Source: Dehalococcoidia bacterium
Lineage (GTDB): Bacteria; Chloroflexota; Dehalococcoidia; UBA2979
Direction: 5' to 3'
Length of the DNA: 64,000 nucleotides
Assembly: GCA_963667465.2 (NCBI GenBank)
Contig: CAXXDN010000002.1
Coordinates: 1,088,001 to 1,152,000 of the forward strand
A program made the translations under genes and the position numbers. Position 1 is the first letter of the stretch. Each line of letters begins with the position of its first letter. Positions 55,182 to 58,949 of this stretch are shown here, in pieces. Below the pieces are notes generated by a model, which searched no databases, was not told the origin of the DNA, and saw only the letters and a list, made by a program, of their open reading frames with translations.

Positions 55182-56525
55182 CTAATGGTGGCCCGCCGCG
55201 GTGGCGCCACTCGCCTCGGCGCTCGCCAACGGCCCGCGGCGCTGCGACGGCGGCGGGGCCGGTCGCGTTGAGGCGAGGAAGAGCAGCGAGCCGAGGCCTG
55301 CGACGAGCGCCAGGCCGATGAAGCCGCTGCGGTAGGAGCCGGTGAGGTCGTAGCTCAGCCCGGCGACGATCGGGCCCAGCACCATCCCGATGATGATGAT
55401 CAGCGACGAGAACCCCATCACTGTGCCGAACGAGGCGCGGCCGAAGTAGTCGGCGCGGATCGCCTGCGTCAGCGGGCCGCGCACGCCGAACGCGAGGCCG
55501 TGGATCACCGTGAAGGCGAGGGCGCCCCACAGCGAAATCCACAGCGTCAGCACGAGCAGCGACACCATGTGCCCGAGCATCGCCACCGTGAGGATGTAGC
55601 GCATCGGGAGCCGGTCGCCGAGGTAGCCGCCGCCGAGCATGCCGATCACGCTCGTCCCGGTCATCACCAGCAGCAGGTTCGCCGCCTGACCGAGCGAGTA
55701 GTCGAGGCTGTCCGTGACGTGCGAGACGAAGTGCACCATCACGGCGCCGACCACCAGCAGCGAGGCAGCGTGACCGAACGAGATCAGCCAGAAGGCGCGT
55801 GTCCTCAGCGCCTGCTGCAACGTGAAGTTGACCTCACCGGGGTCGAAATCACTCAGCCGGCCGTCGGCCGTCTGGTGCTGGAGCGGCGGGTCGCCGTCGA
55901 CACCGTAGCCGTACTGGGAGGGCCGGTGGCGCATGAAACTCGCGAGCGGCAAGCCGACGGCGATCACGATCAGCCCCGAGGCGATCGCGGTCTCGCGCCA
56001 GCCGATGTGCTCAAGCGACCACGCGACACCCGGCTGCAAGACACCACCGAAGGCGAAGCCAGCGGTGGCGATCCCGATCGCCAGCGCGCGCCTGCGATTA
56101 AACCAGTTCACGACCGCGACCATCATGCCCATCCCCGCACCGGCGCTCAGACCCAGCGCAATGACGATGAAGGCGAGATAGAACTCGGTGATGGTGTTGA
56201 TCTGGCTGAGCAGCAGGAACCCGAGCCCGAAGATCGTGATCCCGATCAGCATGATCCGCCGCGGACCGAATCGGTCGAGCGCCCAGCCCTGGATGGGGCC
56301 AAGCAGACCGGACTCGACCATCTGGATCGAGAAGGCGGCGGAGAGCGAGGTGCGGCTCCAGCCGAACTCGGCCTCCAGCACCACGACGTACTGCCCGAAG
56401 GCGTGGAACATCAGCCCGCCAAGGGTCGCGGAGAGCAGGAACCCTGCGGCCACGATGTACCAGCCGAAGAAGATGCGCCCGCCCCGCCTCGGCGTGGTGG
56501 GCAGGTCGGCCCGATCGAGCGTCAC
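55182..56525 (-). CDS. MFS transporter, paralogue of 5354..6646
   Basis: 'IFFGWYIVA', 'ESGLLGPIQGWALDRFGPR', 'RADYFGRASFGTVMGFSSL'. Confidence 0.9.
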   Translation of the reverse strand: MTLDRADLPTTPRRGGRIFFGWYIVAAGFLLSATLGGLMFHAFGQYVVVLEAEFGWSRTSLSAAFSIQMVESGLLGPIQGWALDRFGPRRIMLIGITIFGLGFLLLSQINTITEFYLAFIVIALGLSAGAGMGMMVAVVNWFNRRRALAIGIATAGFAFGGVLQPGVAWSLEHIGWRETAIASGLIVIAVGLPLASFMRHRPSQYGYGVDGDPPLQHQTADGRLSDFDPGEVNFTLQQALRTRAFWLISFGHAASLLVVGAVMVHFVSHVTDSLDYSLGQAANLLLVMTGTSVIGMLGGGYLGDRLPMRYILTVAMLGHMVSLLVLTLWISLWGALAFTVIHGLAFGVRGPLTQAIRADYFGRASFGTVMGFSSLIIIIGMVLGPIVAGLSYDLTGSYRSGFIGLALVAGLGSLLFLASTRPAPPPSQRRGPLASAEASGATAAGHH

Positions 56526-56630
56526 GGCCGCAACAGCGGCCCCGGCTCGCTGAGCGCCGTCGGGGGAGTGCTCGGGGTCAGCATGTTGCCCTCGATGATA
56601 GCGCGGCGAGTGCTACGGTCTGAGTACGGA

Positions 56631-56865
56631 TCATTCGACCACACCCAGCGCACCCCAGCTGCCTCCGTCTGGCCGCACGCTCGCCCGGATGTCGCCGTGG
56701 CGGACGCCCTCCCGGATCCGCATCTGGACGACGACACTGCGTTCATCGTCGAGCGTGTTGTCCGGAACCGATGGCCGCCGTGGCGGTGGCGCCGAGGGCA
56801 ATGAGCGCGACCAGCGTCGCGATCGCCAGCGTGGCCGTGACCGTGGTCCGCGGCAGGGCCTTCAC
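56631..56865 (-). pseudogene. Possible frameshifted, truncated remnant of a secreted protein
   Basis: GTG-start signal peptide MKALPRTTVTATLAIATLVALIALGATATAA; a shifted frame continues DERSVVVQMRIREGVRHGDIRASVRPDGGSWGALGVVE*. Confidence 0.4.
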
Positions 56866-56961
56866 CTGACTCGCGGCCTGCAGCGCGCCTCGTCCATCCG
56901 CCCGGCGCCTCGCGGCGCTGATCGCCGCCGTGCCGAAGGACAGCCTGCGTCAGGCGAGCGG

Positions 56962-57534
56962 CTACCCCTCGCGGGCCAGGCGCTCGCGGTGCGCCTCGCG
57001 CAGGGTCTCGAGGGCGCCCTCGAGCAGCTTCGGGATCTTCGCGTCGCCGAACGAGTAGAAGTCATCCAGCGCGCGCTCGAGGCCGAAGGCGACGTTGAAG
57101 CGGTGCGCCGTGTCGTAGCGGCCGACGATCAGCGCCAGCTCCACGATCTGCTCGTCCGTGTAGTGCTCACGCAGCTGCTCCAGCAGTTCGCCGTCGATGC
57201 CCTGCGCGTGTGCGGCCACCCAGCGCTCCGTGAAGCGCAGCGCCAGCTTCGTCTTTTCCGGGAGATCCGAGGCCTCGAAGTCCTGGACCTTCGCGACCAT
57301 CTCCTCGTCCATGCCTTCCTGCTGCGCCGCAGCAGATCGACCGGGGATTCACCACTTGCAATCGTTGAGATTCGCCGACTTCAGCCGGCAGAGGTCGACC
57401 GTGACCGGGTCAATCGAGGTGAACTCCTGCCACGCCGCGTGGAACAGCGCGAACGCCATCTGCGTCTCGGGCGCCAGACTGCGCGGGTTCGGGATGGTCC
57501 TCGGGCTGGCTTCCGGGTCGTGCACCTGCGTCAT
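56962..57534 (-). CDS. CMD/AhpD-like protein with in-frame TGA in a CxxU motif (candidate selenoprotein, 190 aa)
   Basis: ORFs 57349..57534 and 56962..57312 are in the same frame; read-through gives ..LCRLKSANLNDCKW-U-IPGRSAAAQQEGMDEE.., matching AhpD-like CxxC; hairpin follows the UGA. Confidence 0.85.
57318..57336 (-). promoter_or_regulatory. Candidate bacterial SECIS hairpin
   Basis: CUGCUGC-GGC-GCAGCAG; stem starts 13 nt and loop 20 nt after the UGA; G-first apical loop. Confidence 0.55.
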
Positions 57535-57563
57535 CGCGTCGCTCCCATTCTCGCGCCCCTTGC

Positions 57564-58223
57564 TTACGGCACCCAGATCCGCCGCGCCGCCTCGAGGCCG
57601 AGGACGAGCGGGCGACCGTTCAACTGAATTGTTACGGTTCCCCGATAGGGCGCAACCTCGATCACCTCGAAGCCCGCGCCGGGACGGATGCCTTCCTCGT
57701 CAAAGAAGCGCAGCAGCTCCTCGTCTTCCTCGTAGACCCGATCCACCGTCGCGCCAGCGCCCGCCTCGAGGTCCGTGAGGCGGCGCATGGAGAGCGGGTG
57801 GCCGTGGGTGGAGCCGGGGATGGGGTAGCCGAAGGGAGAGACCTTCGGGTTGCCGAGGCGCTCGACGATCAGCGGCTCGGTCACGTCCGAGATCGCGTGC
57901 TCCATCAGGTGCGCTTCCTCGTAGGCGCGCCACCACTCGAGGCCGAGCGTGTCCACCAGCAGGCACTCGGCGAGGCGGTGCCGCCGCACCATCTGCTCCG
58001 CCCTCGCGAAGCCGCTACCACTCAGCGAGATGCGCTTGCGCCCGTCGATCCGCACCAGCTTGTCGCGGCGCAGGCGCGTGAGCATACCCGCCGCCGAGGC
58101 CGGCTTGATGTCCAGCCGCTCGGCGACGCGGGCAGCGATCACTTCCTCCTGCTCGTCGTGCGAGAGGCGGTAGATCGTGGTCAGTGCGTCGTCGGCCGCG
58201 ACGTTGGTGACTTGCTTGGGCAT
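57564..58223 (-). CDS. DtxR/MntR-family metal-dependent regulator with C-terminal FeoA-like domain
   Basis: HTH 'AARVAERLDIKPASAAGML', 'RRHRLAECLL', 'EEAHLMEHAIS', 'PFGYPIP', FeoA-like tail. Confidence 0.93.
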   Translation of the reverse strand: MPKQVTNVAADDALTTIYRLSHDEQEEVIAARVAERLDIKPASAAGMLTRLRRDKLVRIDGRKRISLSGSGFARAEQMVRRHRLAECLLVDTLGLEWWRAYEEAHLMEHAISDVTEPLIVERLGNPKVSPFGYPIPGSTHGHPLSMRRLTDLEAGAGATVDRVYEEDEELLRFFDEEGIRPGAGFEVIEVAPYRGTVTIQLNGRPLVLGLEAARRIWVP

Positions 58224-58250
58224 TGTCCCTCCGCGCCATGATACTCCATG

Positions 58251-58290
58251 CGCGATTGCGCCCTTGCACGGCTGCGGGGGCGCAATCGCG
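58251..58290. promoter_or_regulatory. Long inverted repeat in the divergent promoter region
   Basis: CGCGATTGCGCCC-N14-GGGCGCAATCGCG, 13-bp perfect arms. Confidence 0.6.
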
Positions 58291-58364
58291 GTGACGGCAG
58301 ACGTTGCGTCGATGACTGGTTATGATGACGTTCCATATTCCCGCCGTCCCAACCCGGAGGCGCG

Positions 58365-58949
58365 GTGACCATCGAAGAACGCCCCCGCCTCGACGCCGAG
58401 CAGGACGCCGTGCTCGGCCCACTCGTGCGCATCATCGAGGAGGCTGCGGACTCACAGCCGTGGGCGCTCATCGGCGCGGCGGCGGCCCAGCTTCAGGGCG
58501 TCGCGGTCAGCGCCGCCAATATCGAGTTCATCACCAGCGACCCCGCAATCCGGGAGCTCGCCGGGATGCTCGGCGTGGACGCGAACTGGGAGCGCGGCGC
58601 CTACCTGGCCGCATCGAGGCTGCAGTTCCAGCGCGGGCAGGTGCCCGTCTTCGTCCACGCGAACCCCACCTTCCACGGCGCGTACGACACGCTCACGCCG
58701 CTCGAGATTCCCTCGCTCTGGGACGCCCGCGCCCCGATCGCATTCGAGGGCGCCACCGTCCTCGCCACGCCGCTCGAGTGGGAGTTGCTGCTCGCCGTCG
58801 TGCTCGGCAACACGGGACGCAGCGAAGCAATCCGCAACCACATCGAGACCAGCGGCGAGTGCGACACTCGCCTGCTCACGCGCCTGATGCGCGAGGGCCA
58901 CGTGGAGCACGAGACCGAGGAAGCCGTCTGGGCGCTGATCGGGCGCTGA
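58365..58949 (+). CDS. Nucleotidyltransferase-fold-like hypothetical protein
   Basis: 'PWALIGAAAAQLQGV...NIEFIT' resembles the hG[GS]..DhD motif but is degenerate; GGAGG SD. Confidence 0.65.
   Translation: MTIEERPRLDAEQDAVLGPLVRIIEEAADSQPWALIGAAAAQLQGVAVSAANIEFITSDPAIRELAGMLGVDANWERGAYLAASRLQFQRGQVPVFVHANPTFHGAYDTLTPLEIPSLWDARAPIAFEGATVLATPLEWELLLAVVLGNTGRSEAIRNHIETSGECDTRLLTRLMREGHVEHETEEAVWALIGR

Follow-up and report, generated by a model that had tools for sequence, protein, structure and literature searches.

Selenoproteins of the AhpD-like and carboxymuconolactone decarboxylase (CMD) type with a CxxU motif, in which U is selenocysteine (Sec), have been known since 2005, when 27 AhpD-like (COG2128) and 4 CMD-domain sequences were described from the Sargasso Sea (Zhang, Fomenko & Gladyshev, PMC1088965). 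In the later Global Ocean Sampling (GOS) survey, "AhpD-like 1" (COG2128) was fourth in abundance with 299 sequences and "AhpD-like 2" (pfam02627) had 70, placing CxxU AhpD-like proteins among the most abundant marine selenoprotein families described (Zhang & Gladyshev 2008, PMC2398784). A 2026 review lists at least four AhpD-type CxxU families, with TIGR01926 as its "AhpD-like protein" selenoprotein family (PMC13188914), and the BSepDB paper (2026) has an AhpD-like family page and gives 46 to 49 selenoproteins for Dehalococcoidia metagenome-assembled genomes (MAGs). The CxxU AhpD-like proteins of these reports come mostly from uncultured marine bacteria. Here we describe a gene on the minus strand of a 64,000-nucleotide stretch of a Dehalococcoidia genome (assembly GCA_963667465.2, contig CAXXDN010000002.1, positions 1,088,001 to 1,152,000; "the window"), which is very probably a Sec-decoded gene for an AhpD-fold protein, Sec insertion itself being what we infer from the sequence patterns described below.

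The window protein has in common with the published AhpD-like and CMD selenoproteins the CxxU motif, Cys homologues with CxxC, and a selenocysteine insertion sequence (SECIS) just 3' of the UGA whose apical loop contains a G. CxxU AhpD-like selenoproteins having been in print since 2005, the locus is little new in kind. Its distinguishing features are an Arg at the position of the relay His, an additional helix at the C-terminus, a conserved DtxR-like neighbour, and a very rigid triloop SECIS.

The gene forms a single frame (57534..56962, minus strand) running from the ATG at 57534-57532 to the TAG at 56964-56962, with the TGA at 57351-57349, codon 62, as its sole internal stop. An earlier note on this DNA had joined two short open reading frames (ORFs) of 61 aa (57349..57534) and 116 aa (56962..57312), both present in the ORF list, into one frame split by this TGA, and both the frame and the read-through peptide are confirmed. 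The read-through product has 190 residues with the motif C59-K-W-U62 in the peptide ..NDCKW-U-IPGRSAAAQQEGMDEEMV.. The note had also described a 7-bp hairpin, CUGCUGC-GGC-GCAGCAG, with a G-first loop 20 nt past the UGA, which we find at 57335-57319. The features of the locus are as follows.

56962 to 57534, minus strand: whole predicted selenoprotein gene with an AhpD/CMD-fold product, 190 codons plus TAG, supported by the ratio of nonsynonymous to synonymous substitution rates (dN/dS) on both sides of the TGA and by a predicted fold that spans it.
57542 to 57546, minus strand: Shine-Dalgarno-like GGGAG, 7 nt before the ATG, read from the sequence and of putative function.
57358 to 57360, minus strand: TGC for Cys59, first residue of the CxxU and presumed resolving Cys, the only invariant column of the 33-sequence alignment A3.
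57349 to 57351, minus strand: in-frame TGA, codon 62, very probably read as Sec, conserved and aligned with the second Cys of the PA0269 CxxC.
57318 to 57336, minus strand: putative SECIS hairpin, supported by frozen synonymous sites, a compensatory change in locus L131, covariation, and the same design in fdhA-like and UGSC genes.
56962 to 57312, minus strand: 116-aa fragment called by gene finders in place of the full gene, seen in the ORF list and in public protein entries.

Among 10 orthologues, dN/dS is 0.10 in codons 1 to 61 and 0.22 in codons 75 to 189, indicating that both halves are coding in one frame, and the alignments to PDB chains and the predicted fold continue across the TGA.

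The TGA itself is conserved. We searched 61 genomes (the source and 60 relatives) with stops read through, and 26 gave a match. Among the same-genus genomes, source included, 11 of 19 hold an orthologue (88 to 99% identity) with exactly one TGA each, and outside the family, one genome of this class has a copy at 49% identity, likewise with a single TGA; in all 11 orthologues and in the other-family copy the TGA lies at the aligned codon 62. A scan with one genome per species yielded 95 confirmed relatives, of which the best 80 were kept, leaving 15 out of the codon and hairpin comparison; judging by record titles, every one of the 80 is a MAG of Dehalococcoidia or Chloroflexota. Of the two patterns used in the scan, AAAQQ[EDM]GM corresponds to the peptide encoded by the hairpin, so the scan is biased to loci keeping this peptide, with codon choice free. 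In 78 of these 80 loci the aligned codon is TGA; in one (L129) the TGA lies four codons off through alignment slippage, and one (L061) has TGC, giving the motif C-K-M-C. Distant homologues carry CxxC at the Sec site (GCPWC, GCAYC, GCRYC), TGA reappears there in further divergent paralogues (GCPF-U, GCHN-U), and U62 aligns to the second Cys of the PA0269 CxxC. An alignment check for Cys or a conserved TGA at this codon, as the earlier note had proposed, thus returns TGA in all same-genus orthologues and in 78 (plus one offset) of the 80 loci, and CxxC at a distance.

Sequencing reads give the same picture. The note had named other letters at the codon in reads as a possible objection, and none occur in contigs from three runs of three studies, in which the letters of the TGA (57349-57351) and of the hairpin (57318-57336) are invariant. 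One read-derived contig spanning the stretch has 25 differences elsewhere, with TGA and hairpin unchanged. The RNA-library run X19 gave only short contigs with 3 to 12 differences, belonging to relatives or paralogues, none of which bridges the TGA for this gene.

As a separate observation, several contigs of other organisms or paralogues match only 44 to 60 nt right after the UGA (57292-57351), with a summed depth of up to 93.5, which is consistent with a SECIS region whose nucleotides are conserved between paralogues.

The hairpin consists of a 5' arm CUGCUGC (57335-57329), the loop GGC (57328-57326), and a 3' arm GCAGCAG (57325-57319), with a U.G pair (57336/57318) as a possible eighth pair. 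It begins 13 nt past the UGA, and the first loop G lies 20 nt past the A of the UGA. Of 200,000 random genome positions, 0.67% have a Watson-Crick stem of at least 7 bp with its loop centre 23 to 27 nt from the U, and 0.011% have the exact design (at least 7 bp, G-first triloop at nt 24 to 26), which is also seen at 9 of the 56,496 UGA trinucleotides.

Selection on the hairpin is visible at the nucleotide level. The 65 loci with an AAAQQ-type hairpin reduce to 56 distinct 75-nt strings, encoding proteins 37 to 97% identical to the window product. Codons +5 to +10 after the TGA (ACU/UCU, then GCU GCG GCG CAG CAG) show zero synonymous variation in these 56 sequences, and codons +2 to +4 (Pro, Ala, Arg) use three to four synonymous codons apiece. 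Among the orthologues, dS is 0.077 in codons 63 to 74 versus 0.516 upstream and 0.215 downstream. The Cys form L061 is without the AAAQQ peptide, and its best hairpin stem has 4 bp.

The note had also suggested looking for stem covariation in relatives, which was found. A metagenome contig of about 69% identity (L131), the sole locus from a scan using patterns outside the hairpin region, has the stem CUGUUGC-GGC-GCAACAG, a compensatory change of a C-G to a U-A pair that is non-synonymous in one arm and synonymous in the other. A second paralogue group (13 to 14 loci, ACDF-U-QAARLPLSGEG) has the stem CUUCCCCU-GUC-AGGGGAAG in the same register, and in one of its members (L130) a C-to-U change leaves a G.U pair. 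The C-H-N-U paralogue at L047 has UUGCCGU-GGC-ACGGCAA, again in the same register. In an ungapped alignment of 39 distinct 60-nt rows, tested as an 8-pair helix, 92.3% of the cells pair, the failures being almost all in the outermost pair, and both sides change in six of the eight pairs. The covariation score is 0.493; shuffles score 0.198, none of the 500 attaining the observed value, and slid partners do not exceed 0.239, with the caveats that the stem structure was taken from the same sequences, that related rows inflate the shuffle test, and that the independent events are few, namely about three paralogue lineages plus L131.

Paralogues of the gene occur in several arrangements. One record, OZ220489.1, holds three Sec paralogues in one genome (loci L088, L105, and L119), with GCRY-U-IPAR, ACDF-U-APAR, and ACDF-U-QAARLPLSGEG, and similar three-paralogue sets are found on other Tepidiformaceae records, two of the paralogues having an identical hairpin core and the third a different stem. 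Locus L047 (genome G038, contig C191, minus strand) carries AhpD-like paralogues in tandem (974-1342 and 1507-1899), one with C-H-N-U and its neighbour with C-A-Y-D.

The source genome (2.97 Mb in two contigs, 93.6% completeness) has the machinery for Sec insertion. The note had observed that no sel genes lie in the window and had suggested a genome search; all four components are present, each above its curated cut-off and each located elsewhere in the genome: a tRNA-Sec (77 bits; ARAGORN anticodon TCA), selA (517 bits), selB (299 bits), and selD (358 bits). The selD gene (C1:106747-107682, locus L018) is a TGA-containing gene itself, with one in-frame TGA in the context ..SCGG-U-AGK.. TGA is not reassigned in this genome, since 497 of the 1207 long high-GC3 ORFs (those rich in G+C at third codon positions) terminate in it. 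A contrast of the Sec machinery between Sec-form and Cys-form genomes was uninformative: selA is present in four of the five genomes compared, the Cys-form genome included, and the sole miss is G038, a 1.4-Mb genome that is 54% complete.

The same hairpin design is found in other genes of the genome. A loose scan for TGA codons with coding-like flanks on both sides and a hairpin returned 10 sites, including the gene under study. The fdhA-like gene (C2, TGA at 1517823, minus strand; L133) scores 645.9 bits to Fdh-alpha and contains one TGA, in the context ..CNRT-U-HAPSVAGL.., and downstream an 8-bp stem carries a GUC triloop, 23 to 25 nt past the UGA. Four TGA genes share the motif D/C-U-GSCT (C2:315221, plus strand, L135; C2:496571, minus; C2:912254, minus; C1:1026864, plus), and in three of them a hairpin with a GUG triloop follows the UGA. 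L135, the only one of the four that was scanned, matches the Pfam family UGSC (Pfam ID PF24696) with an E value of 6.8e-43, and its hairpin pairs over 8 bp around a GUG triloop. Selenoprotein genes of this genome thus repeatedly use a G-first triloop on a 7- to 8-bp stem, placed 19 to 20 nt past the UGA.

A further TGA site of the genome (C1, TGA at 712385, minus strand; L132) reads ..PVIVYCYDRE-U-DASPRAAARLEQLGF.. and shares the hairpin design of the gene under study, with 8 bp in the stem and a GGC triloop at nt 24 to 26; its product looks rhodanese-like by eye.

The bacterial SECIS consensus, as in E. coli fdhF and bSECISearch, is an in-frame hairpin 3' of the UGA with a loop-first G about 20 nt away. 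Like the fdhF-type element, the window hairpin lies directly 3' of the UGA, in frame, with G first in the apical loop. Unlike it, the hairpin has a minimal 3-nt triloop (GGC, and GUC or GUG in the related hairpins) on a perfect 7- to 8-bp stem, with no bulged U evident, and the loop position is fixed at nt 23 to 26 in several genes of the lineage. This offers a SECIS template specific to the lineage, with which loose scanning of the genome also retrieved the fdhA-like, UGSC-family, and other TGA genes.

The protein is predicted to adopt the AhpD fold. A profile of 33 homologues run against PDB chains matches PA0269 (E value 2.4e-32), Atu0492 (1.1e-30), Bmp8 (2.4e-25), and Deinococcus AhpD (1.7e-12), and the single sequence matches PA0269 with an E value of 4.3e-10. 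The AlphaFold2 model (predicted local distance difference test [pLDDT], 86.8; predicted template modelling score [pTM], 0.82) is all-helical, with residue 62 opening the helix 62-72. Foldseek superposes it on PA0269, Atu0492, and P. aeruginosa AhpD with target-normalised template modelling (TM) scores of 0.84 to 0.92 and root mean square deviations of 1.7 to 2.4 Å. The best matches in both sequence and fold are PA0269 (PDB IDs 2ijc, 2o4d, and 7xw1) and Atu0492 (2gmy), and these four entries are among the targets within that TM range.

Like PA0269, the window protein has a helix-turn-helix with acid-x11-C-x-aromatic-C, its residues D47, C59, W61, U62, and R66 lying at PA0269 Glu36, Cys48, Tyr50, Cys51, and His55. 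Unlike PA0269, it has Sec for Cys51, Arg66 for His55, a length of 190 versus 145 aa, and about 40 residues beyond the PA0269 core, including an extra C-terminal helix at 169-189. Both the Arg for the relay His and the C-terminal helix of about 40 residues also set it apart from the published AhpD-like selenoproteins. The Arg at +4 is present in every TGA-bearing row displayed and also in the Cys form L061. Among sequence models, the best NCBIfam match is NF053654, "YciW-related (seleno)protein", for the window protein and for all 33 A3 members; this is an AhpD-superfamily model allowing Sec, and with 45.5 bits versus a cut-off of 310 the window protein is not a member of that equivalog. With TIGR01926 (peroxidase-related enzyme) it reaches 24.6 bits versus a cut-off of 81.8 and so falls below that published family, and the models NF041047 and NF041238, also listed in the review, gave no reported match.

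Besides the caveats already attached to the locus scan and the covariation test, several observations weigh against a Sec-decoded AhpD-like enzyme at this locus. The folding energy of the hairpin is ordinary for a genome of 71% G+C (z = -0.11, with 82 of 200 shuffles as good or better) and was rejected as evidence, being no better than shuffles; the significance of the hairpin derives from its conservation and covariation and not from its stability. The selD hairpin is of another type (GGGUC-UUUC-GACCC, with a loop without G), so the triloop design is not universal in the genome, and no SECIS shared with selD was found. The paralogue at L047:1507-1899 has Asp at the Sec column, its stem being reduced to a weak G.U-rich remnant. 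The gene seems dispensable, since 8 of the 19 same-genus genomes gave no match in the search with stops read through. The single sequence stays under the gathering score of Pfam CMD (Pfam ID PF02627; 21.2 versus 23 bits, E value 2.9e-4) and below every NCBIfam cut-off. Finally, the proton-relay set is incomplete: the acid D47, C59, and U62 are present, and the His position is occupied by Arg66. In PA0269, the relay is described as Glu36, Cys48, Tyr50, Cys51, and His55, with the two Cys and the His invariant and the His essential, and the peroxidase activity is weak in vitro (PMC3141380). The classical AhpD peroxidase mechanism is therefore uncertain for the window protein, as Arg66 replaces this invariant, essential His.

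In the reading that we favour, the two short ORFs are one gene for a 190-residue, all-helical AhpD-like thiol/selenol oxidoreductase of the CMD superfamily. The hairpin, by its anatomy, would act as a bacterial SECIS, recruiting SelB with Sec-tRNA(Sec) to a ribosome paused at the UGA of codon 62. In the predicted product, C59-x-x-U62 lies at the N-terminus of a helix, where AhpD-like proteins hold the catalytic CxxC, and the U62 selenolate probably attacks an oxidised substrate, candidates being a peroxide, a disulfide or sulfenate of the peroxiredoxin type, and other electrophiles. C59 would then resolve the intermediate as a selenenylsulfide, to be recycled by a cellular reductant. In M. tuberculosis AhpD, the second Cys of the motif is reportedly the nucleophile.

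With the relay His missing, a non-classical substrate is a live rival. The protein could be a selenoprotein with other chemistry, either reductive dehalogenation of the Bmp8 type or a dedicated disulfide- or metal-linked redox step, which we regard as unlikely. It would accommodate the change of the relay His to Arg in every Sec form seen, the profile match to Bmp8 at the E value given above together with a query-normalised TM of 0.63 between the model and this debrominase, the presence of the stretch in runs labelled sponge metagenome, the metal regulator as the conserved neighbour, and the up to three Sec paralogues per genome. By sequence and structure, however, PA0269, Atu0492, and AhpD are closest, not Bmp8, and the near neighbours, the only genes of the window that were scanned, gave no sign of a halogenase or dehalogenase context. 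A more specific version is that the clade, found in Dehalococcoidia, forms a distinct AhpD-fold Sec subfamily beyond the existing models, with the signature [DE]-x11-C-x-[WYF]-U-x3-R, non-peroxidase chemistry, and a minimal rigid SECIS. The Arg-for-His site and the likeness to Bmp8 might then reflect, for example, reductive dehalogenation of brominated metabolites, and the SECIS would be defined as UGA, 19 to 20 nt, and a G-first triloop on a perfect 7- to 8-bp stem; taken jointly, these propositions strike us as quite improbable.

Reading of the UGA without Sec, for example as Cys or Trp through near-cognate decoding, or Sec insertion that is minor beside termination, we consider very improbable. 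Sec insertion is never fully efficient, and other systems are known to exchange Sec and Cys at UGA codons when selenium is limiting, which gives this explanation some footing. It is opposed by the complete Sec machinery of the genome, by a conserved and covarying hairpin at SECIS spacing, by the fdhA-like gene with the same design, and by the common use of TGA as a stop in this genome. That the TGA is a true stop, leaving a pseudogene or two small genes of 61 and 116 aa, is barely credible, because even though gene callers and public databases treat the locus in this way and an AGGAAGG just before the ATG at 57312 resembles a ribosome-binding site, the codon position of the TGA is kept between genomes with protein identities of only 37 to 97%, purifying selection acts in one frame on both sides, protein-level conservation includes the 12 codons from the TGA to the internal ATG, neither the predicted fold nor the PDB alignments break at the TGA, and the AGGAAGG overlaps the 3' foot of the conserved hairpin.

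For the favoured Sec-decoded gene, the main practical consequence is a systematic annotation error. In public protein collections, 16 of the 17 matches are fragments of 108 to 120 aa that start at the internal Met and, where named, are called "hypothetical protein"; relatives of 50 to 83% identity are among the proteins found there. The earlier note had expected standard annotation to split the gene, and for the close relatives the collections searched indeed keep no more than a C-terminal piece of about 116 aa. For this clade of Dehalococcoidia, the databases therefore lack the catalytic half and the Sec residue. The locus is also an example of an RNA element dictating protein sequence, as the nucleotide constraint on the hairpin holds the peptide AAAQQ constant between paralogues of about 40% identity.

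The immediate upstream neighbour of the gene is the following.

57564 to 58223, minus strand: gene for a DtxR/IdeR-type metal-dependent repressor, with the Pfam domains Fe_dep_repress, Fe_dep_repr_C, and FeoA, in a neighbourhood kept in 9 of 9 orthologous loci.

This gene ends 29 nt before the start of the selenoprotein gene, which probably shares a transcript with it. A promoter and terminator scan of 56400-58500 found none, shuffles giving about the same. The genes kept in all nine orthologous loci are the DtxR-like gene, an M42 peptidase gene, and a major facilitator superfamily (MFS) transporter gene. Between the DtxR-like and M42 peptidase genes lies a 194-aa ORF (58365-58949, plus strand) with no Pfam match at E values up to 0.001. 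The 436-nt gap between the selenoprotein and MFS transporter genes contains a 40-codon hydrophobic ORF (MKALPRTTVTATLAIATLVALIALGATATAAIG..) at 56743-56865 on the minus strand.

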